Shown here piece after piece: positions 16,666 through 32,890 of a DNA stretch of 64,000 nt (positions within the stretch are counted from its first letter, which is position 1; the number at the start of each line of letters is the position of its first letter). Origin of the DNA: an uncultured Verrucomicrobiae bacterium (lineage in GTDB: Bacteria > Verrucomicrobiota > Verrucomicrobiia > Palsa-1439); the NCBI GenBank assembly GCA_963817685.1, contig CAWFPN010000003.1, positions 401,772-465,771 of the forward strand, read 5' to 3'. The notes under the pieces were generated by a model. That model did not search any database, was not told the DNA's origin, and saw only the letters and a list, made by a program, of their open reading frames with translations. A program made the position numbers and the translations under genes.

Positions 16666-16744
16666 ACCCCCATGCTACGAACTAACCCGTCTTAGGGCAA
16701 GGCAGGATATGTCACCGAAGGGCTCACTAAGCGGGGCTATGTCA

Positions 16745-19327
16745 TCACACGCAGACCGGGAACACCTTCTCCGGGTCGACGCCCAGATCTTTGATGGCTT
16801 GGGCAACCACTTCCTTGCCGAGCTGGCCTTTTTCGGCGAGGGCGTAGAGGGTGGCGATGACGGTGCATTCGGCGTCGACTTCGAAGAAGCGGCGCAGGGC
16901 CGGGCGCGTGTCGCTGCGGCCGAAACCGTCGGTGCCGAGGGTGGTCAGGCCGCCGGGTATCCAGGGGGCGATCTGGTCGGAGACGATCTTCATGTTGTCG
17001 GACACGGCGATGAACGGGCCGGGCTGGCCTTCGACGACGGTTTCCAGATAGCTCTTCTTGGGCGGCTCGGTCGGGTGAAGCATGTTCCAGCGTTTACAGG
17101 CCTGGGCTTCGGTGCGGAGTTGTTTGTAATTGGTGGCGCTCCAGACGTCGGCGGACACGTCGTAGCGTTCCGCGAGGATTTCCTGGGCGCGCAAGGCTTC
17201 GCGGATGATTGTGCCGCTGCCGAAAATCTGGGCCTTGTGCTTCTTGGCGTCCGGGCCGGGCTTGAATTTATAGAGACCCTTGAGGATGCCCTGCTCCGCG
17301 CCTTCGGGCATGGGCGGCATGGCATACATCTCGTTGTGCACGGCCAGGTAATAAAAAATGTCTTCGCCTTCCTGGAACATCCGCCGCATGCCGTCCTGGA
17401 CGATCACGGCGATTTCGTACGTGAAGGCGGGTTCGTAGGCCAGCAGGGTCGGCACCACGCTGGTCAGCAACAGGCTGTGACCGTCCTCGTGCTGGAGGCC
17501 TTCGCCGTTGAGCGTCGTCCGGCCGGCGGTCGCGCCGAGCAGGAAACCTTTGGCCTTGATGTCGCCCGCCAGCCACCACAGATCGCCGATGCGCTGGAAA
17601 CCGAACATGGAATAATAAATGTAGAATGGGATCGTGTAGAACCCGTGCGTGGCGTAGGCTGTGGCCGCCGCCAGCCAGGAACACATCGCGCCCGTCTCGG
17701 TGATCCCCTCTTCGAGGATCTGGCCGTCCTTGGTCTCGTGGTAATACGACAAGGTGCTGCGGTCGACCGGTTCGTAGAGTTGCCCTTTGGGCGCGTAAAT
17801 CCCCACTTCCCTGAACAGCGTGTCCATGCCGAACGTCCGCGCCTCATCGGGGATGATCGGCACAACGCGCCGGCCCAGGTCCTTGTTGCGCAAGATCTGG
17901 GTGACAAACCGCACGAACCCCATCGTGGTGGACATTTCCATCTTGCCCGAGCCCTTGAGCATGTCGGAAAACGTCTCGAGCTTGGGAACCTCGATCGGCT
18001 TGGCCTTGACCGTGCGTTTGGGCAGCGAACCGCCGAGTTTCTTGCGGCGTTCCAGCAGATATTTCGTCTCCTCGCTGTCGGGTGGCGGCCGGTAAAAGGG
18101 CGTCTCGGCGATTTCCTCGTCGCTGATCGGGATGCCGAACCGGGCGCGGAACTCGCGGAGTTCCTTTTCGTTCATCTTCTTCTGCTGGTGCGTGATGTTG
18201 CGGCCTTCACCCGCTTCGCCGAGGCCGTAGCCTTTGATTGTCTTGGCCAGAATCACGGTCGGCTGGCCCTTGTGTTCCACGGCCGCTTTGTAGGCCGCGT
18301 ACACTTTTTGCGGATCGTGGCCGCCGCGTTTGAGCGCGTGGATCTGGTCGTCACTGAGCGAGTTGACCATCTCGAGCAACTCGGGATATTTGCCGAAGAA
18401 ATTCTTGCGGGTGTAACTGCCGGGCTCGACGGAATATTTCTGGTACTCGCCGTCCACCGCTTCGGTCATCCGCTTGACCAGCAGTCCCTGATCGTCATTG
18501 GCCAGCAACGGGTCCCAGTCCGAGCCCCAAATCACCTTGATCGCGTTCCAGCCCGCGCCGAGGAAGGCGGCTTCCAATTCCTGGATGATCTTGCCGTTGC
18601 CGCGCACCGGGCCGTCGAGCCGTTGCAGGTTGCAGTTGACGACCCAGATGAGATTGTCCAATTGCTCGCGCGAGGCCAGCGTCAACGCCCCGAGCGTTTC
18701 CGGTTCGTCGATTTCGCCGTCGCCGACGAAACACCAGAGCTTCGATTCCTCGCCGGTGAGAAACCCGCGCGCGCGCAGGTAACGGTTGAACCGCGCCTGG
18801 TAGATCGACATCACCGGGCCCAGTCCCATCGAGACGGTGGGGAATTGCCAGAAGTTCGGCATCAAATACGGATGCGGATAGGACGACAGCCCGCCGCCTT
18901 CGGCCAGTTCCTGGCGGAAATGCTGGAGATGCTGGTTCTCGAACCGGCCTTCGAGATACGCGCGGGCGTAGATGCCCGGCGAAGCGTGTCCCTGGAAATA
19001 AACGATATCGGCCGGCCGCTCGCCGTCGCCGCCCCGGAAGAAATGGTTGAACCCGACTTCGTAGAGCGTGGCGGCGGAGGCGTAGGTGGAGATGTGGCCG
19101 CCCAGGCCGTTGTGGAGGCGGTTGGCATTGACCACCATGGCCATGGCGTTCCAGCGGATGAGGCTCTTGATCCGCCGTTCCAGCTCGCGGTTGCCGGGGT
19201 ATTCCGGCTCCTCGTCGGCGGGGATGGTATTGACGTAGGGCGTGTTCAGCGGGTTGGCCGGCTGCGCGCCCAGCGGCTGTTTATGTTTCAACTGTTCCTT
19301 TAGATTCAGATTCACATTGACCCTCAA
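16745..19327 (-). CDS. aceE: Pyruvate dehydrogenase E1 component, homodimeric type.
   Basis: 860 aa. ...YVNTIPADEEPEYPGNRELERRIKSLIRWNAMAMV... aligns with E. coli AceE ([31 protein letters not shown]). Confidence 0.9.
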   Translation of the reverse strand: MRVNVNLNLKEQLKHKQPLGAQPANPLNTPYVNTIPADEEPEYPGNRELERRIKSLIRWNAMAMVVNANRLHNGLGGHISTYASAATLYEVGFNHFFRGGDGERPADIVYFQGHASPGIYARAYLEGRFENQHLQHFRQELAEGGGLSSYPHPYLMPNFWQFPTVSMGLGPVMSIYQARFNRYLRARGFLTGEESKLWCFVGDGEIDEPETLGALTLASREQLDNLIWVVNCNLQRLDGPVRGNGKIIQELEAAFLGAGWNAIKVIWGSDWDPLLANDDQGLLVKRMTEAVDGEYQKYSVEPGSYTRKNFFGKYPELLEMVNSLSDDQIHALKRGGHDPQKVYAAYKAAVEHKGQPTVILAKTIKGYGLGEAGEGRNITHQQKKMNEKELREFRARFGIPISDEEIAETPFYRPPPDSEETKYLLERRKKLGGSLPKRTVKAKPIEVPKLETFSDMLKGSGKMEMSTTMGFVRFVTQILRNKDLGRRVVPIIPDEARTFGMDTLFREVGIYAPKGQLYEPVDRSTLSYYHETKDGQILEEGITETGAMCSWLAAATAYATHGFYTIPFYIYYSMFGFQRIGDLWWLAGDIKAKGFLLGATAGRTTLNGEGLQHEDGHSLLLTSVVPTLLAYEPAFTYEIAVIVQDGMRRMFQEGEDIFYYLAVHNEMYAMPPMPEGAEQGILKGLYKFKPGPDAKKHKAQIFGSGTIIREALRAQEILAERYDVSADVWSATNYKQLRTEAQACKRWNMLHPTEPPKKSYLETVVEGQPGPFIAVSDNMKIVSDQIAPWIPGGLTTLGTDGFGRSDTRPALRRFFEVDAECTVIATLYALAEKGQLGKEVVAQAIKDLGVDPEKVFPVCV

Positions 19328-20098: not shown

Positions 20099-20146
20099 CC
20101 TGCGCCCCTCAACCCTAGTAATTTCATTGCTTCCAGGGCGGTTCTC

Positions 20147-20157
20147 TGGTACAATAT
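20147..20157 (+). promoter_or_regulatory. Putative extended -10 promoter element (TGGTACAATAT) of beta-propeller paralog 1.
   Basis: TGnTAcAAT-like extended -10 element. The same element and a conserved ~65-nt leader ending ...GGGAGATCAATGG occur upstream of all three paralogs (also at 22264-22274 and 24935-24945). Confidence 0.4.
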
Positions 20158-20213
20158 GCAAATTCGTCGCGAAGCGAAATACACGCGGGTTGGGTGGCGG
20201 CGAAGGGAGATCA

Positions 20214-22238
20214 ATGGGCTTGGCTGGCTGCCGGTATAGTGGAGAAACAGTGCGCACTGTGTCGCGACGATTCGTCACGGCGGCGGCCATCATTTTACCC
20301 CTGATTCTCCTGCTGCTGTTGCCGTCGCGCGTCGCGGCGGTGAATGTATTGACGCAGCACAACAACAATTGCCGCACCGGCGCCAACCTCAACGAGTACG
20401 TCCTGACCACTTCCAACGTGAACACCGGCCAGTTCGGCAAGCTGTTCACACGGGCCGTGGACGGCGCGATCTATGCCCAGCCGTTGTACGTCCACAACCT
20501 GACGATTTCCAACAAGACGCGCAACGTCATCTACGCCTGCACCGAGCACGACAGCGTCTACGCCTTCGATGCGGACGATCCCGCCGCCTCCAACGCGCTC
20601 TGGCAGGTAAGCCTCGGCCCATCGGTTCCCATCTCCAACCTGAACGGCTGCGGCGATCTTCCGCCCGAGGTCGGCATCACCGGCACGCCCGTAATCGATC
20701 CGGCAAGCAACACTCTGTACGTTGAAGCCAAGACCCTGGAATCCGGCAACTTCCTCCACCGGTTGCACGCGCTGGACCTGATCACGGGCCAGGAAAAATT
20801 CGGCGCGCCGGTCGTGATCCAGGGCACGGTATCCGGCACAGGCGACGGCAGCAACACCGTCACGTTCAGCGGCCAGCATCAATTCAACCGCCCGGGCCTG
20901 TTGTTGCTGAGCAACGTCGTCTACATCGCCTTCGGGTCACACTGCGACTGGGCGCCGTATCACGGCTGGCTGTTTGGCTACAACGCCGGCAACGTCCAGC
21001 AGCAGGCCGGTGTTTTCTGCACGACTCCCAATGGCGGAGAAGCCGGGATCTGGTCGTCCGGCATGGGACCGGCGGCCGACAGCAACGGCAACATCTACGT
21101 CATGACCGGCAACGGCACGTTCGACGCGCCCAATGGGAGCGATTATGGGAATTCGTTCATCAAGCTCAGCGCATCCAACGGGACGCTGGCTGTGGCCGAT
21201 TGGTTCGCGCCTCACGACGAGCAGTCGCTGAGCGATGCGGACCAGGACGTCGGCGGCGGCGGGCCGGTGCTGATGCCGGGCACGAATCTCCTTGTGGGTG
21301 TTGACAAGATCGGCAGGATGTACGTGATCAACCGAAGCCATTTTGGCGGCATCGTCCCGACCACCGACACCAACATCGTGCAGGAGTTTCAGGCCGTGGC
21401 CGGCGGCCCTGGTGTCGGACAAAGCCCCGTCTTCTGGAGCGGACCGACGAACCAGCTTGTGTTCACCTGGACCACCAGCGACGTGCTCAAGGCGTACCAG
21501 TTCAATGGATCCACCTTCCAAACCACGCCGGCGGCCCAGGGCACTGTCTACCAGGGCCGCGCCGGCGGGACCTCCCTGTCGGCCAACAGAAACGCCGCCG
21601 GCAGCGCCATTGTTTGGGGCATTGAGGGCCAGAACAACGGCGGGGAACTGCATGCTTACAGCGCCATCAATATTTCCAACGAACTCTGGAACAGCCAGCA
21701 AAACGCCGCCCGCGATTCCCTCGGCAACTACGCCAAATTCTGCGCGCCCACCATCGTCAACGGGAAAGTCTACGCGCCCACGACCGCCAGCCAGTTGGCC
21801 GTCTACGGTCTGCTCGGTACGCCCTATCACCTCTGGCAGCAGCAAAACTTCTCGAGCGCCCAATTGACCAATGCCGCCGTCAGCGGTGACACCGCCAGCC
21901 CAGCCGGCGACGGTATCCCCAACCTTATGAAATACGCCTTCAACCTCAAACCGTTTGTCCCCGGCGCCGCCGGCCTGCCTGTGGCCGGCCTGCAAACGGT
22001 CGGCGGCACCAATTATCTGTCGATCACCTTCAACCGAGTCCTGTTTGCCACGGACGTTTCCTACACCGTGCAGGTTTCCGGCGACTTGATTACCTGGAAC
22101 TCAGGGCCGGTTTACACAGCCCCCGCCGGCACGCCCATTGACAACGGCGACGGCACCGAGACGGTCACCGTCCAGGACATTGTCCCCGTCACCGCCGCCG
22201 GCGCCAGATTTATCCGGGTCCAAATCAACGGCCCCTAA
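20214..22238 (+). CDS. Tat-signal secreted beta-propeller protein (PQQ-like repeat family), paralog 1, with a ~130-aa C-terminal domain.
   Basis: RBS GAAGGGAGA. Twin-arginine-like signal MGLAGCRYSGETVRTVSRRFVTAAAIILPLILLLLLPSRVAA. Propeller blades carry A.DA..G..LW-like motifs (VYAFDADDPAASNALWQV; HALDLITGQEKFG; ELHAYSAINISNELWNS). Confidence 0.65.
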   Translation: MGLAGCRYSGETVRTVSRRFVTAAAIILPLILLLLLPSRVAAVNVLTQHNNNCRTGANLNEYVLTTSNVNTGQFGKLFTRAVDGAIYAQPLYVHNLTISNKTRNVIYACTEHDSVYAFDADDPAASNALWQVSLGPSVPISNLNGCGDLPPEVGITGTPVIDPASNTLYVEAKTLESGNFLHRLHALDLITGQEKFGAPVVIQGTVSGTGDGSNTVTFSGQHQFNRPGLLLLSNVVYIAFGSHCDWAPYHGWLFGYNAGNVQQQAGVFCTTPNGGEAGIWSSGMGPAADSNGNIYVMTGNGTFDAPNGSDYGNSFIKLSASNGTLAVADWFAPHDEQSLSDADQDVGGGGPVLMPGTNLLVGVDKIGRMYVINRSHFGGIVPTTDTNIVQEFQAVAGGPGVGQSPVFWSGPTNQLVFTWTTSDVLKAYQFNGSTFQTTPAAQGTVYQGRAGGTSLSANRNAAGSAIVWGIEGQNNGGELHAYSAINISNELWNSQQNAARDSLGNYAKFCAPTIVNGKVYAPTTASQLAVYGLLGTPYHLWQQQNFSSAQLTNAAVSGDTASPAGDGIPNLMKYAFNLKPFVPGAAGLPVAGLQTVGGTNYLSITFNRVLFATDVSYTVQVSGDLITWNSGPVYTAPAGTPIDNGDGTETVTVQDIVPVTAAGARFIRVQINGP

Positions 22239-22263
22239 ACAGATTGTGGAAACAGTGTTTTTG

Positions 22264-22274
22264 TGGTACAAGAT
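22264..22274 (+). promoter_or_regulatory. Putative extended -10 promoter element of paralog 2 (TGGTACAAGAT).
   Basis: Conserved position relative to the start codon across all three paralogs. Confidence 0.35.
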
Positions 22275-22329
22275 ATGCGCTTCGCCATGAGGCGAATTCA
22301 GCCCTGACGGGTCAGGGTGAGGGAGATCA

Positions 22330-24891
22330 ATGGCCATGACCGGCTGCCATTACACGCGGCAAATAGTGCGTCATCTGTCACGGCGATTCATCGCCTTGGC
22401 GGTCGCGGCTTTTCCGCTGACTGTCCTTCTGTTGTCGCCATCGGGCGCCGCGGCGGTCGATGTGTGGACGCAGCACAACGACAATTTTCGCACGGGCGCC
22501 AATCTCAACGAGTTCACGCTGACCACCTCCAATGTGAACACGGGCCAATTCGGCAAACTGTTCGCGCGCGCGGTGGACGGCCAGATCTATGCCCAACCGC
22601 TGTACGTCCACAGCCTGACGATTTCCAACAGGACGCGCAACGTCATCTACGTCTGCACCGAGCACAACAGCGTGTTCGCCTTCGATGCCGACGATCCCGC
22701 CGCCTCCAACGCTCTCTGGCAGGTGAACGTCGGCCCGTCGGTTTCCTACACCGACGTGGACAGTTGCACGGACCTTGCTCCCGAGATCGGCATCACCTCC
22801 ACGCCGGTCATCGATCTTGTCAACAACACCATCTTCGTCAGCGCCAAGACCAAGGAATCAGGCAACTTCTTCTACCGGCTCCACGCGCTGGACCTGCTTA
22901 GCGGCCAGGAGAAATACGGCGGGCCCGTGCTGATCCAAGCCAGCGCGCCCGGCTCGGGCGACGGCAGCGTCGGCGGGACCAACACCTTCAATGCCTTGCA
23001 CCAGTTGAATCGCCCCGGGTTGCTGTTGTTGAGCAACGTGGTCTACCTGGCCTTCGGCTCGCACTGCGACTGGACGCCGTATCACGGCTGGCTGCTGGGC
23101 TATAACGCGACCAACCTGCAGCAGGTCAGCACGCTGAACACGACTCCCAATGGCAACGACGGCGCGATCTGGTCATGCGGCATGGGACCGGCGGTCGACC
23201 CCGCGGGCAACATTTACGTCATGACCGGCAACGGCACGTTCGATGCGACCAACGGCGTCGATTTCGGGCAATCGTTCCTCAAACTCAGCACGTCGAACGG
23301 GCCGCCGGTCATCGTCGATTCGTTCACGCCCCACGACGCGGCGACGCTGAACCTGACCGACCTGGACATTGGCACGGGCGGGCCGGTGCTGATGCCGGGC
23401 ACAAACATTCTGGTGGGCCTGGCCAAGACCGGCGCGATGTACGTGCTCAACGAGAACCATCTGGGCAACTTCGTCACCTCCTCCGACACCAACACCGTGC
23501 AGGTGTTCCAGCCCGTGCCGCCCGCGGATTGCATCGGACAGTGTCCCGTTTACTGGAACGGGCCGACCAACCAGTTCCTGTTCCTCTGGACCGGCGGCGA
23601 CGTGCTGCGGGCCCTCAAGTTCAACGGAGCCACCTTCCAAACCACGCCGCTGGCCACCAATACCGTGGCGCAGAACGACCCCGGCGGCGGGCTTTCTCTG
23701 TCGGCCAACGGCAATGCGACCGGGACCGCCGTTCTCTGGGGCACCTGGGGCACGCCCGGCGCCGCCGATGGCGCGTTGTACGCCTATGATGCCGGCAACG
23801 TCGCGCATGAACTCTGGGACAGCAGCCTGATCGGGCGCGATGCGCTGGGCAGTCTGGCGAAGTTTTGCGCGCCGACAATCGCCAACGGCAAAGTCTATGT
23901 CGCCACCGCCTCGGGCAATCTCGTCGTGTACGGTCTGTTGCCATCGCCGCCGCAATTCCAGGTCACCGGGATCTCCCTGTCCAACAATGACGTGATGCTG
24001 GCCTGGACCGCGTTTGGCGCGACAACCAATTACGTCCAGGCCACCGCCGGCGACGGCGGCGGTTACTCCACCAATTTCACCACCATCAGCCCGCCCATCG
24101 GCATCCCCGGCACCGGCCCGACCGCCACCAATTACATCGACGCGGGCGGGGCAACCAATCAGCCCGCCCGCTACTATCGCGTGTCGATGGTCGGCCCGCT
24201 GGCCATCGACAATGCGGCCGATCCGGCCTACAGCGGAGGCTGGCCCGGCGGCAGCAACGGCGGCCGGGGGTATGGGCCGTGGACGTTGACGGCCTCCAGT
24301 CCGATTCAAGGCGCGGGCAACGGGTTCTTCATCGGGTTCTCAACGAACAACGGCGGTTTCGCCTCGCCGGGCATCGACGTCAACGGCAAATCATGGGGCA
24401 TCTACGCCAACAACAACAATTACACCGCGGCGTACCGGCCGTTTCTCAGCCCGGTGCCGGTGGGCGGCACGTTGCGCGTCGACATGGACAACGGGTACAT
24501 CAGTTCCAACAGCGCGGTCGGTTTTGTGCTGCGCAACGGCAATGCTGCCGCGAGCTACACCAACTACAACACAGGTTCGCGGCTGGAGTTCCTCTACATC
24601 GGCTATGCCCCCACCAACAGTTACCAGGTGGTCGACGCCGCCGCGCGCCATGCGATCGGCGTTCCGTTCACGACCACGGGCCTGCGGCTGTACTTCACGC
24701 TGGGAACCAACGACACCTACACCCTGACGGTCGTGGACAACGCCACCAGCGCGACCGATGTGGTCTTGCATGGCACGCTGGCGGGGGCGACCAATAGCAC
24801 GCTCGACAGCATCGCTGTCTACAACCGCAATGCCGGCGACGGTCCCCCGTTTGACGCGTTCTTCAATTCCCTCCAAATCAACGGCCCGTAA
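22330..24891 (+). CDS. Tat-signal secreted beta-propeller protein, paralog 2, with a distinct ~300-aa C-terminal extension including an FN3-like module.
   Basis: MAMTGCHYTRQIVRHLSRRFIALAVAAFPLTVLLL... The propeller region is about 75% identical to paralogs 1 and 3. C-terminal ...GATNQPARYYRVSMVGP... and the gene ends ...SLQINGP. Confidence 0.65.
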   Translation: MAMTGCHYTRQIVRHLSRRFIALAVAAFPLTVLLLSPSGAAAVDVWTQHNDNFRTGANLNEFTLTTSNVNTGQFGKLFARAVDGQIYAQPLYVHSLTISNRTRNVIYVCTEHNSVFAFDADDPAASNALWQVNVGPSVSYTDVDSCTDLAPEIGITSTPVIDLVNNTIFVSAKTKESGNFFYRLHALDLLSGQEKYGGPVLIQASAPGSGDGSVGGTNTFNALHQLNRPGLLLLSNVVYLAFGSHCDWTPYHGWLLGYNATNLQQVSTLNTTPNGNDGAIWSCGMGPAVDPAGNIYVMTGNGTFDATNGVDFGQSFLKLSTSNGPPVIVDSFTPHDAATLNLTDLDIGTGGPVLMPGTNILVGLAKTGAMYVLNENHLGNFVTSSDTNTVQVFQPVPPADCIGQCPVYWNGPTNQFLFLWTGGDVLRALKFNGATFQTTPLATNTVAQNDPGGGLSLSANGNATGTAVLWGTWGTPGAADGALYAYDAGNVAHELWDSSLIGRDALGSLAKFCAPTIANGKVYVATASGNLVVYGLLPSPPQFQVTGISLSNNDVMLAWTAFGATTNYVQATAGDGGGYSTNFTTISPPIGIPGTGPTATNYIDAGGATNQPARYYRVSMVGPLAIDNAADPAYSGGWPGGSNGGRGYGPWTLTASSPIQGAGNGFFIGFSTNNGGFASPGIDVNGKSWGIYANNNNYTAAYRPFLSPVPVGGTLRVDMDNGYISSNSAVGFVLRNGNAAASYTNYNTGSRLEFLYIGYAPTNSYQVVDAAARHAIGVPFTTTGLRLYFTLGTNDTYTLTVVDNATSATDVVLHGTLAGATNSTLDSIAVYNRNAGDGPPFDAFFNSLQINGP

Positions 24892-24934
24892 GGCAAACGC
24901 GCGAGGTCGCGTGGTTGTGGCCGCGTGGTTTCTG

Positions 24935-24945
24935 TGGTACAAATG
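24935..24945 (+). promoter_or_regulatory. Putative extended -10 promoter element of paralog 3 (TGGTACAAATG).
   Basis: Conserved leader as for paralogs 1 and 2. Confidence 0.35.
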
Positions 24946-25001
24946 ATTCACCTCGCCGCCAGGCGAATACACGCCCGTGGGTCTCGGAGCAGGGAAGATC
25001 A

Positions 25002-27026
25002 ATGGCCATGGCCGGCAGCCGTAACATGCGGGAAACAGCGCGTTATCCGTCACGGCGGTCCGTCGCCGCCGTGGTTGTTTTGTTGTTGTCGGCCGTTCTC
25101 CTGTTGTGGCCGTCACGCGGGGCGGCGGTGAATGTGTTGACGCAGCACAACGACAATTTCCGCACGGGCGCCAACCTCAACGAGTACGTGCTGACCACCT
25201 CCAACGTGAACACGGGCCAGTTCGGCAAACTGTTCGCGCGCCCCGTGGACGGCCAGATCTTCGCGCAGCCGCTCTATGTCCACAACGTGACCATCTCCAA
25301 CCAGACCCGCAACGTCATCTACGTCTGCACCGAGAGCAACAGCGTCTACGCCTTTGACGCCGATCATCCAGCCGCGTCCAACGCGCTGTGGCGGACCGGC
25401 CTGGGCGCCCCGGTCCCCGCGTCCGCCGTGGGGGGTTGCCCCTTCATCAGCCCCGAGATCGGCATCACGTCCACGCCCGTGATCAATCCGTCCAATAACA
25501 CCCTCTACGTCGAAACCAAGACCGTGCAGGGCACGAACTATGTCCAAAGCCTGCACGCACTGGACATCACCACCGGCCTGGAGAAGTTCGGCGGGCCCGT
25601 CGTCATCCAGGGGTCCGTACCGGGCACGGGCGACGGAGGCACGACGGTCGTCTTCAACGCCTTCACCCAGGTCAATCGCCCGGGACTGCTGCTGTTGAGC
25701 AACGTCGTCTACGTCGCCTTCGGATCGCACTGCGACTTCTACCAGTATCACGGCTGGTTGTTCGGCTACAACGCGACGAACCTCCAACAGGTCGCCATTT
25801 ACAATACCACGCCCAACGGCAGCGAGGGCGCGATCTGGTCCTGCGGCATGGGACCGGCCGCCGACAGCAACGGCAACATTTACGTGATGACCGGCAACGG
25901 CACGTTCGACAAGAACACCGGCGGCCCTGATCTGGGCGATTCCTTCATCAAGTTCAGCACGTCCAACGGCACGCTGGCCGTCGCCGACTGGTTCACCCCG
26001 TACAACCAGGGCACGCTCGACTCGCAGGACCTGGATCTCGGCTCGGGCGGGGCGGTGGTTCTGCCCGGCACGAGTTTCCTCGTCGGCGTCGGCAAGACAG
26101 GCCCGATGTACCTGCTCAACGAGGACCATCTCGGCGGGTTCTCCAGCGCAGGCAGCGACACCAATGTCGCCGAGGAATTCATGGCCGGTGTGTCCACCTG
26201 CTGCATTGGGCAAAACCCGGTTTACTGGAACGGGCCGGCCAATCAATTCATCTTCCAGTGGAGCGGCGATATCCCGCTCAAGGCCTTTTCGTTCAATGGC
26301 TCCTCGATCCAGAGCAATGCGGTGGCCACCGGCGCCACGACGCAAAGTTCCAGCACGGGCGGGACGTCGCTCTCGGCGAAAGGAAACACCGCCGGCAGCG
26401 GCATCGTTTGGGGCACCGAGTCCGGCAACGGCGGCACGCTGCACGCCTACGACGCCACCAACGTGGCCGACGAACTTTGGAACAGCCAGCAAAACGCCGC
26501 CCGGGACGCGCTGTCCTCGTTCGTGAAGTTCTGCGCGCCCACCATTGTGAACGGAAAGGTCTACGTCGCCACCTCGAACCAACTCGTCGTGTACACTTTG
26601 CTCGCTGCCCCCTACCAGCTCTGGCGGCAGCAAAACTTCTCCAGCGCCCAACTGACCAATGCCACTGTCAGCGGCGATACCGCCAGCCCCGCCGGCGACG
26701 GCATCGCCAATCTCACCAAATACGCCTTCAACCTCAAACCGTTTGTCCCTGTCACCGGCGGCCTGCCCGTGGACAGTCTGCAAACGATCGGCGGCACCCA
26801 CTATCTATCGATCACCTTCAACCAAGTCCTCTTCGCCACGGACATTTCCTACATCGTCCAGGTCTCCGGCGACATGGCCACCTGGAACTCAGGGCCCGGT
26901 TACACGGCCCCTGTCGGTACGCCCATCGACAATGGCGACGGCACCGAGACGGTCACCGTCCAGGATGTTGTCCCCGTCAGCGCCGCCAACTCCAGGTTCA
27001 TCCGGGTCCAAATCAACGGCCCCTAA
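25002..27026 (+). CDS. Tat-signal secreted beta-propeller protein, paralog 3. Its C-terminal domain is nearly identical to that of paralog 1.
   Basis: MAMAGSRNMRETARYPSRRSVAAVVVLLLSAVLLLWPSRGAA... C-terminus ...DGIANLTKYAFNLKPFVPVTGGLPVDSLQTIGGTHYLSITFNQVLFATDISYIVQVSGDMATWNSGP...ANSRFIRVQINGP. Confidence 0.65.
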   Translation: MAMAGSRNMRETARYPSRRSVAAVVVLLLSAVLLLWPSRGAAVNVLTQHNDNFRTGANLNEYVLTTSNVNTGQFGKLFARPVDGQIFAQPLYVHNVTISNQTRNVIYVCTESNSVYAFDADHPAASNALWRTGLGAPVPASAVGGCPFISPEIGITSTPVINPSNNTLYVETKTVQGTNYVQSLHALDITTGLEKFGGPVVIQGSVPGTGDGGTTVVFNAFTQVNRPGLLLLSNVVYVAFGSHCDFYQYHGWLFGYNATNLQQVAIYNTTPNGSEGAIWSCGMGPAADSNGNIYVMTGNGTFDKNTGGPDLGDSFIKFSTSNGTLAVADWFTPYNQGTLDSQDLDLGSGGAVVLPGTSFLVGVGKTGPMYLLNEDHLGGFSSAGSDTNVAEEFMAGVSTCCIGQNPVYWNGPANQFIFQWSGDIPLKAFSFNGSSIQSNAVATGATTQSSSTGGTSLSAKGNTAGSGIVWGTESGNGGTLHAYDATNVADELWNSQQNAARDALSSFVKFCAPTIVNGKVYVATSNQLVVYTLLAAPYQLWRQQNFSSAQLTNATVSGDTASPAGDGIANLTKYAFNLKPFVPVTGGLPVDSLQTIGGTHYLSITFNQVLFATDISYIVQVSGDMATWNSGPGYTAPVGTPIDNGDGTETVTVQDVVPVSAANSRFIRVQINGP

Positions 27027-31855: not shown

Positions 31856-32890
31856 TCAGCTCTTGCGGCGGCGGAGGAAGGCGGCGCCCAAGAATGCAAA
31901 GGCGACCAGGGCGATCGCGGATGGCTCGGGAATCAGGGCCAGGCCCGCCGGGGTCAGGTTCCAGCCGATCACATCGAGGGCCTCCAGTTCGTTGGGGCCC
32001 AGGTTTGGTTCGGCCTCGGAGCTGGTGCCGCCGAAGGCGTCCTGGACTTGCGGCGGGGTGTTCCCCTGCCCGTCCGCCGGTGTGACGCCGTCTCCCCAAT
32101 CAGCGAAATCCCCGTCGGGGCTCTGGTTGAAATGCACCAGGGGCGTTTTGCCGCCATCGATGGAGAAATAGGACACCGTGTTCGCGTCGTTGGTGTAACT
32201 CCGGATGCCCAGGCCGCTGTAACGGAAGAGATCCAGCGCGCCAACCGAGGTTGCGAGACCGCCCGCGTTTGTTGAAATCCTCGAACCCGTCCCACCGATG
32301 CCGAGGACTTCGTCGATCTCATGCATGGCCACGGAGACCAGGTCGTACTTGTTGGTATCCTGCAGGCCGCTGCGGGAGAGATTCATGAGCCCCATGTTCA
32401 GCGAGATGGTGCTGTCGAAATTGGTCCCGTTGTCCGCGATGGCTGTTTCCCCGAGAGCCCGGAGGACGGAGTCGGCGAGGTGGACATTCGCGTTGGCGTT
32501 CACCGGGTTATTCGGCCCGGCGGGAAGCGTGGCGAGGGCGGTGGTGTCATACGACGAGAGTGTCTGGTTGTTCTGGAGATCGGAGAGATATTGGGAGTAA
32601 GGCAGATCGTCCTGGATGGTCTGGCTTTGACCGAGACCGGTGTTGATGCTCTCGAAATCGATGGTGACGGTGATGGGATTGGCGATGTAGCTGTCGATAA
32701 TCGAGATGTCCGAGTTGATCGTGGACTCGATGGTCGCGGCGTTCGGATCGCTTGTGATCGAGGTGCCAAAGGTCGGGTCGATCGTCAGGTTGGCATTTGC
32801 CGATACGCAGCAGACGGCAAGAATCGACAGACATGCGAGCAGCCTGAGTGCGGCGGTCATATTCCCCAACGTACCCTGAAATCGTTTCAT
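31856..32890 (-). CDS. PEP-CTERM sorting-domain secreted protein.
   Basis: N-terminal signal peptide. C-terminal ...LALIPEPSAIALVAFAFLGAAFLRRRKS (PEP motif, TM helix, basic tail). Confidence 0.75.
   Translation of the reverse strand: MKRFQGTLGNMTAALRLLACLSILAVCCVSANANLTIDPTFGTSITSDPNAATIESTINSDISIIDSYIANPITVTIDFESINTGLGQSQTIQDDLPYSQYLSDLQNNQTLSSYDTTALATLPAGPNNPVNANANVHLADSVLRALGETAIADNGTNFDSTISLNMGLMNLSRSGLQDTNKYDLVSVAMHEIDEVLGIGGTGSRISTNAGGLATSVGALDLFRYSGLGIRSYTNDANTVSYFSIDGGKTPLVHFNQSPDGDFADWGDGVTPADGQGNTPPQVQDAFGGTSSEAEPNLGPNELEALDVIGWNLTPAGLALIPEPSAIALVAFAFLGAAFLRRRKS

Follow-up and report, generated by a model that had tools for sequence, protein, structure and literature searches.

An old tandem array of three genes for PQQ-like propeller proteins with alternative C-terminal modules in an uncultured Verrucomicrobiae bacterium

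The window considered here is a stretch of 64,000 nucleotides (nt) from an uncultured soil Verrucomicrobiae bacterium (GenBank assembly GCA_963817685.1, contig CAWFPN010000003.1, positions 401,772 to 465,771 of the forward strand). Between 20.1 and 27.0 kb of the window lie three tandem co-oriented open reading frames (ORFs), below referred to as P1, P2 and P3 (Table 1), which bears out the tandem triplication proposed in an earlier sequence-only reading of this DNA. Their starts are placed at the conserved ATG behind a shared GGGAGATCAATGG block; the public gene call of P1 (P0003, 662 amino acids, aa) begins 12 codons further downstream, at GTG. In the three-way alignment, a 42-residue N-terminal signal and a domain of about 490 residues are common to P1, P2 and P3, and the proteins diverge thereafter. 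The amino-acid identity of the common domain, a beta-propeller as described below, is 65-66% for all three pairs (about 70-75% at the nucleotide level) rather than the 75-80% claimed earlier. The 139 C-terminal residues of P1 and P3 are 82% identical, and P2 has instead an unrelated extension of 316 aa; this split had been recognised correctly, with the sizes given as about 130 and 300 aa. On balance, and with some reserve, we favour the view that these are three old, separately retained paralogs encoding Sec-secreted, probably catalytic, glycan-directed propellers of the pyrroloquinoline quinone (PQQ)-like type with alternative targeting modules.

The AlphaFold2 (AF2) model of P3 (73 homologs) has a predicted local distance difference test (pLDDT) score of 85.4 and a predicted template modelling (pTM) score of 0.80. 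Its top matches in the PDB, according to Foldseek, are eight-bladed PQQ alcohol/methanol dehydrogenases, tetrathionate hydrolase and BamB (probability 1.00, E = 1e-14 to 1e-9, identity 12-14%, template modelling (TM) score 0.45-0.7), and the DSSP output of the model allows eight blades of four strands each to be assigned. The motif AxDxxTG...W, which we take to be the docking motif of quinoprotein propellers, is recognised in several blades, e.g., LHALDITTGLEKF and LHAYDATNVADELW. At the level of the modelled fold, the domain of P1, P2 and P3 is thus a PQQ-like propeller, as the sequence-only reading had it, with eight blades. This is seen through the model and the Foldseek comparison; Pfam and NCBIfam contain no meaningful matches for the three proteins, and PDB searches by single sequence and by family profile return only noise, with no quinoprotein.

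It is tempting to consider the proteins as genuine PQQ-dependent quinoprotein dehydrogenases that oxidise sugars or alcohols outside the cell. The PQQ alcohol/methanol dehydrogenases are the best structural matches, some relatives have sub-threshold matches to PF01011 (PQQ) or PF13360 (PQQ_2), and one relative carries the NCBI name “pyrrolo-quinoline quinone”. However, PF01011 has no match in the window proteins even at E = 10, and the scores of the relatives, 12-24 bits, are below its cut-off of 26.7; for TIGR03300 (BamB), the score is 14 bits against a cut-off of 285. The TM-scores to the dehydrogenases are only about 0.45-0.6. A vicinal Cys-Cys pair occurs in P3 only and is apparently not conserved, and no pqq or cytochrome gene is present among the annotated genes flanking the array (about 13.8-32.9 kb) or in the related loci inspected. 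Membership in the quinoprotein dehydrogenase family is not supported, since no family model matches, a vicinal Cys-Cys is apparently not conserved, and the inspected architectures and neighbourhoods include neither a cytochrome domain nor a cytochrome partner; we believe this explanation to be very improbable.

The sequence-only reading presented the array as a recently expanded and diversifying family, which is refuted by the following comparisons. In the neighbour-joining tree, P1, P2 and P3 are not grouped together (not monophyletic). P1 shares 79-80% identity (pairwise) with P0004 and P0010 and 76% (multiple alignment; 75% by tblastn) with P0002, as against only 65% with P2 and P3. One related locus (L085) contains the P1 ortholog followed by a gene 79% identical to P2, and another (L086) contains the P1 ortholog followed by a gene 75% identical to P3; the syntenic locus L004 (lplA ... 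VIT1) has a single copy. The duplications thus predate the split of several lineages, because both the paralog-specific orthologs and the P1-P2 and P1-P3 adjacencies are found elsewhere. The synonymous divergence (dS) of the propeller among the paralogs is 0.57-0.77, and the ratio of nonsynonymous to synonymous divergence (dN/dS) is 0.32-0.43. As judged from these alignments, the array is old, retained and under purifying selection rather than the outcome of a recent, diversifying expansion. Of 80 related loci, about nine have two or three family members clustered locally.

The tails of P1 and P3 have dS of 0.37, about half that of their propellers (0.77), and in their last 35 codons no four-fold site differs. 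Positions 22100-22238 (P1) and 26890-27026 (P3) share 85-90% nucleotide identity, which falls to 18% over the 60 nt past the stop codon. The low dS, the identical four-fold sites and the abrupt end of the similarity suggest that gene conversion limited to the tail has probably taken place between P1 and P3.

The twin-arginine strings reported earlier, SRRF in P1 and P2 and SRRS in P3 (extended, SRRFV, SRRFI and SRRSV), are indeed present in the three N-terminal regions; the proposed export by the twin-arginine translocation (Tat) pathway is not supported. The RR pair is not kept in four of the five orthologs, and the P3 ortholog alone retains it: the P1 orthologs have SQRF (P0004) or no RR (P0010, P0002), the P2 ortholog in L085 has SRWS, and the more distant P0013 has SLRF. 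Among 108 homologs with an N-terminal extension, RR precedes the h-region in 22 (i.e., about 80% of these signals are devoid of it), and five fit RR.[FGAVML][LITMVF], which we take to be the TatP-type regular expression. The h-regions of the window proteins are Leu-rich; their maximum 12-residue Kyte-Doolittle means are 3.36 (P1), 2.46 (P2) and 3.38 (P3), which we read as Sec-like in the light of the usual hydrophobicity of signal peptides. On the other side, all three paralogs keep SRR and a long n-region within 42-aa signals, P1 fits the above expression, and P1 and P3 have Pro and a basic residue, Arg, in the c-region. Since RR is poorly kept in orthologs and homologs and the h-regions are strongly hydrophobic, Sec export with cleavage at an AxA-type site at about residue 42 appears more likely, and Tat export of P1, P2 and P3 is rather improbable.

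No lipobox Cys follows the h-region in the window proteins. A lipoprotein was considered on account of LAGC (P1 residues 3-6) and rejected, as this motif precedes the h-region and is kept neither in P3 nor in the L085 ortholog. In the P1 ortholog of L085 (about 930-945), the conserved ATG that follows the Shine-Dalgarno sequence is replaced by ATA, so that translation has to begin 8 codons further on; therefore, residues 1-8 of the window signals (MGLAGCRY / MAMTGCHY) are probably dispensable.

The extension of P2 starts with an Fn3-like domain of a type that forms the extreme C-terminus in many other proteins. The 230-aa module that follows (P2 residues 624-853) was modelled by AF2 with pLDDT 90.5 as a jelly roll, for which Foldseek finds calreticulin, VIP36, legume lectins and GH16 (E = 5e-6 to 1e-4, TM-score 0.45-0.63) as well as Akkermansia GH181 sialidase structures. 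The model thus has the fold of the concanavalin A (ConA)-like lectin/glucanase superfamily. In other proteins the module is standalone, is combined with PKD domains, or is followed by PEP-CTERM. Its homologs (P0146, P0147, P0150 and P0151) natively end in FFNSLQI(I/V)GP, and in several standalone homologs the PEP-CTERM anchor comes directly after this end. Considering that standalone homologs adjoin PEP-CTERM, the P2-type module is suggested to be a cell-surface module usable with or without exosortase sorting. The ...QINGP C-terminus was also considered as a sign of conversion between P2 and P1/P3; this was rejected in view of the native end of the homologs. A 343-aa protein with a PEP-CTERM motif is encoded 5 kb downstream of the array (31856-32890, minus strand), so the organism probably has an exosortase system.

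In the P3 model, the module common to P1 and P3 consists of helices, including the motif GDTASPAGDGIPNLxKYAF, and a beta-sandwich that ends in RFIRVxIxxP. It has no Pfam or NCBIfam model. An earlier word-index search with this module gave one uninformative match, and the counts given here come from an exhaustive profile search, which yielded 12,154 representative clusters, 3730 of them at E <= 1e-10. The matches are almost always at the very C-terminus of proteins of 130 to 3800 aa. Ten inspected carriers include GH92, GH30+CBM6, DUF5060, PhoD/purple-acid-phosphatase-like and pro-kumamolisin (sedolisin) proteins; He_PIG/BACON domains are likewise found on carriers. Going by this distribution, the P1/P3 module behaves as a generic attachment/sorting module of secreted enzymes and is a candidate phylum-wide domain, although its role may be no more than binding or attachment.

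The search for homologs of the propeller gave at least 8000 candidates. The 482 loci found in GTDB species representatives (one genome per species) belong to at least six phyla: Verrucomicrobiota, Acidobacteriota, Armatimonadota, Chloroflexota, Cyanobacteria, and single matches elsewhere, e.g., in Geomonas and Polyangia. Their identity to P1 is 44-71%, and 45-52% between phyla. The propeller is always N-terminal, and the tails are variable: PKD, Fn3, TIG, Big, CBM6/CBM35, ricin-B, PA14 and CHB_HEX_C. In at least seven Acidobacterial loci (L025, L040, L056, L063, L068, L074, L083; Terriglobia), the homolog directly follows a polysaccharide-biosynthesis operon of the exopolysaccharide/O-antigen type (epimerase, RmlC, nucleotidyl transferase, PIG-L deacetylase, Wzx flippase, pyruvyl transferase, GT2) and has the same orientation. 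At locus L003, two family copies are found beside apiosidase-like and pectate-lyase-fold genes. The neighbouring genes elsewhere point to glycans and define no activity. We draw the link to glycans from these operons and from the neighbours at L003, together with the fusions to carbohydrate-binding modules (CBMs), ricin and PA14 domains, the lectin fold in P2 and the carriers of the P1/P3 module. At ten other loci, mostly in Armatimonadota (L017-L021, L023, L028, L035, L047, L076), the gene that precedes the propeller gene, ending about 200-900 bp before it, is conserved and encodes a large protein of about 1115 aa; this is probably lineage synteny.

The same data bear on another explanation, according to which the proteins are a non-catalytic scaffold or surface protein, BamB-like, S-layer or glycoprotein-like, possibly glycosylated in Acidobacteria by the products of the adjacent polysaccharide genes. 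BamB has the highest target-normalised TM-score (0.69-0.72), and the Acidobacterial members that lie beside the glycan-biosynthesis operons are long (1100-2200 aa, most 1500-2200) and have long TIG-repeat tails. However, an identity of 45-52% across phyla and invariant Arg, Asp, Lys and Asn residues on one face exceed the usual conservation of a scaffold, and the fusion to CBMs and the absence of a lipobox after the h-region also speak against it. We consider a scaffold unlikely, though not to the degree of a quinoprotein.

The faces of the propeller were assigned from the DSSP blades and the canonical propeller topology, with the D-A and B-C loops taken as the top face and the A-B and C-D loops as the bottom face. 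Under this assignment, polar residues conserved at 90% or more occupy 18 of the 173 top-face loop positions as against two of the 96 bottom-face positions (Fisher p = 0.014). These residues include D83, Q89, R226, N299, D343, D345, K365, R501, D502 and K509; a further dense conserved cluster (H49, N50, R54, N58, E61) is in an N-terminal segment of low confidence. When the blades are aligned locally with one another, the median z is 0.45 and a single pair is above z = 4; these alignments show no binding motif repeated across the eight blades. The location of conserved polar loops on one face round the central axis corresponds to the active-site position of catalytic propellers, for which reason we prefer a single-site enzyme.

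A lectin- or adhesin-like role had been proposed for these proteins. Carbohydrate-binding modules are normally attached to catalytic domains; since the relatives append such modules in the same way, the propeller itself is unlikely to be a lectin, and the lack of a blade repeat and the single conserved polar face likewise do not bear out this role. In its complete form, the proposal of the sequence-only reading was a recently expanded, diversifying family of secreted lectins or adhesins exported by Tat as folded or cofactor-loaded propellers. The Tat-like features of the three signals and the lectin-fold module of P2 are in its favour; the loss of RR in relatives, the hydrophobic h-regions, the age of the array under purifying selection and the organisation of the propeller described here are opposed to it, and we consider it very doubtful as a whole.

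Each gene is preceded by a conserved block of about 85-95 nt that includes TGGTACAA and GGGAGATCAATGG. With at most one mismatch, TGTGGTACAA is found in the window at just these three sites and one unrelated site. The duplicated upstream region of about 70 bp with TGGTACAAnAT reported earlier is confirmed in part: the motif as written matches P1 and P2, whereas P3 has TGGTACAAATG instead, and the overall upstream identity among the paralogs (61-69%) does not exceed that at four-fold synonymous sites (62-67%; the random expectation is 43%). Only specific upstream blocks stand out, not the whole 70 bp. An alignment of the three upstream regions of the window with four more, taken from three other organisms, has as its invariant columns the TTG of the -35 box, T.TG.TA..A (extended -10) exactly 17 nt downstream, TCG.C, and the Shine-Dalgarno sequence with the start. 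In L085, the P1 ortholog has a perfect TGGTATAAT at the place equivalent to the P1 element, and the element upstream of the P2 ortholog is nearly identical to that of P2; the upstream region in L004 has TGTTATCAT. Considering that the -35, extended -10 and Shine-Dalgarno columns are invariant across the seven regions, one sigma-70-type extended -10 promoter per gene is most likely, in agreement with the earlier claim of a promoter-like element for each gene. No intergenic terminators between the genes were found in the terminator scan, so read-through is also possible.

The leaders contain short palindromes (Table 1). The folding z-scores of the leaders are between -0.6 and +1.0, RNAalifold predicts 4 pairs for the seven leaders with no compensatory change, and the Rfam scan of 19-28 kb at E <= 1 gives two chance-level matches within coding sequence and none in the leaders. 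In view of the z-scores and the lack of covariation, no claim of a structured riboregulator is made. The idea of a regulon-wide palindrome was likewise dropped, since TTCGCC-N4-GGCGAA occurs in the window at the P2 and P3 leaders only. The palindrome may serve as a stabilising 5' stem or as an operator, or it may be inherited sequence.

Table 1. Features of the three-gene array, in positions of the window
Feature	Position	Strand	Description
P1 promoter-like element	20127-20155	+	-35 TTGCTT 20127-20132; 17-nt spacer, TG 20147-20148; -10 TACAAT 20150-20155
P1 leader imperfect palindrome/small hairpin	20163-20178	+	TTCGTCGCGAAGCGAA
P1 (paralog 1)	20214-22238	+	674 aa; signal peptide 20214-20339, cleavage predicted after VAA
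P1 propeller, eight-bladed PQQ-like	20340-21818	+	assigned via homology to the modelled P3 domain
P1 C-terminal module	21819-22235	+	139 aa; helical linker bearing the GDTASPAGDGIPNL motif, then beta-sandwich; end RFIRVQINGP
P2 promoter-like element	22244-22272	+	-35 TTGTGG 22244-22249; TG 22264-22265; -10 TACAAG 22267-22272
P2 leader perfect palindrome/hairpin	22281-22296	+	TTCGCC-ATGA-GGCGAA
P2 (paralog 2)	22330-24891	+	853 aa; signal peptide 22330-22455; propeller 22456-23940
P2 Fn3-like beta-sandwich	23941-24198	+	end ARYYRVSMVGP
P2 ConA-like lectin/glucanase jelly-roll module	24199-24888	+	230 aa, P2 residues 624-853; predicted from AF2 model and Foldseek
P3 promoter-like element	24915-24943	+	-35 TTGTGG 24915-24920; TG 24935-24936; -10 TACAAA 24938-24943
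P3 leader palindrome/hairpin	24952-24967	+	CTCGCC-GCCA-GGCGAA
P3 (paralog 3)	25002-27026	+	674 aa; signal peptide 25002-25127; propeller 25128-26606; C-terminal module 26607-27023

Taken together, the system could work as follows. Each gene would be transcribed from its own extended -10 promoter (TTGnnn, 17 nt, TGnTACAAn), and the product would be exported via Sec and cut after an AxA site near residue 42. The propeller would be the working head, presumably an enzyme with a single site whose substrate is an extracellular glycan; a binder of a single ligand is less likely. The C-terminal modules, i.e., the 139-aa module in P1 and P3 and the Fn3-like domain with the ConA-like jelly roll in P2, would set the place where the head acts. 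A more specific proposal is tentative, and we would not press it: the propeller may be the catalytic domain of an undescribed extracellular carbohydrate-active family (a cofactor-less lyase or hydrolase, or an unusual oxidoreductase), and the P1/P3 module a phylum-wide sorting/attachment domain.

Several points weigh against this explanation. Apart from the Tat-like features of the signals mentioned above, the face assignment uses secondary structure and canonical topology, not coordinates. Adjacency to polysaccharide-biosynthesis genes fits a glycosylated surface protein equally well. The generic promoter scan of the window did not report the upstream boxes of the three genes. The flanks of the array encode pyruvate dehydrogenase E1 (read from translation) and E2, LplA, a glycine-zipper lipoprotein, an FHA/DUF4388 protein and VIT1-rubrerythrin; this neighbourhood is housekeeping or unrelated and hence uninformative. 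In the literature, we found no account of the propeller family or of the P1/P3 module, and no activity, cofactor or substrate for any member.

A stop-free ORF of 864 aa (16709-19303, plus strand) is antisense to the pyruvate dehydrogenase E1 gene (16745-19327, minus strand), and each of the three propeller genes contains similar long antisense ORFs. Such ORFs are a common artefact of high-GC DNA and do not represent genes.

The locus itself is unexceptional, and what makes it of note is mainly how many proteins belong to the unannotated family or carry the C-terminal module. A PQQ-like propeller family of thousands in soil bacteria (soil, peat) with no Pfam or NCBIfam model and no solved structure is an annotation blind spot; the P1/P3-type C-terminal module, also unmodelled and found on thousands of secreted enzymes, is a second one. 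Solving either would make gene function easier to read from the genomes of Verrucomicrobia and Acidobacteria, both of them major players in soil carbon turnover. P1, P2 and P3 with their defined orthologs are a natural set for studying how swaps of C-terminal modules affect targeting.

Among known systems, the type IX secretion system C-terminal domain (T9SS CTD), PEP-CTERM and MYXO-CTERM are comparable to the P1/P3 module, which, like such sorting domains, forms the very end of thousands of secreted enzymes that are not related otherwise. The P1/P3 module differs from them in having no sequence relation to them and no transmembrane or Cys signature. Multivalent propeller lectins (tachylectin-2, AAL, RSL, PLL) are also secreted propellers, and they bind sugars; however, they have 5-7 near-identical blades with a site in each, whereas P1, P2 and P3 have eight unrelated blades and one conserved face. 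In PQQ dehydrogenases and other catalytic propellers, the active site is likewise on one face around the central axis.

BamB (PF13360, PQQ_2) has the eight-bladed PQQ-like fold, a target-normalised TM-score of about 0.7 and sub-threshold counterparts in some relatives, but it is a non-catalytic lipoprotein of about 390 aa, whereas the window proteins have no lipobox, a propeller of about 490 aa and strongly conserved polar loops. The PQQ alcohol/methanol dehydrogenases (PF01011; PDB 8gy2, 1yiq, 6zcw, 1w6s) are eight-bladed members of the same superfamily with the AxDxxTG...W motif in several blades; they are also exported and have a central top-face site, which in the window proteins is predicted. 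They differ in the low identity (12-14%) and TM-score (about 0.45-0.6) and in the absence of any match at the sequence level in Pfam or the PDB; moreover, the window proteins apparently have neither a conserved vicinal Cys-Cys nor a cytochrome partner and, as a family, carry C-terminal modules of the CBM, Fn3 or lectin type.

Tetrathionate hydrolase of Acidithiobacillus (PDB 6l8a, 7cqy) is separated from P1, P2 and P3 by an identity of about 13%, unrelated organisms and ecology, the lack of C-terminal modules in the hydrolase, and the lack of a link to sulfur metabolism here. It is nevertheless a cofactor-less enzyme with a PQQ-like eight-bladed propeller that is located outside the cytoplasm, and it is the best precedent for a PQQ-like fold that is no quinoprotein.

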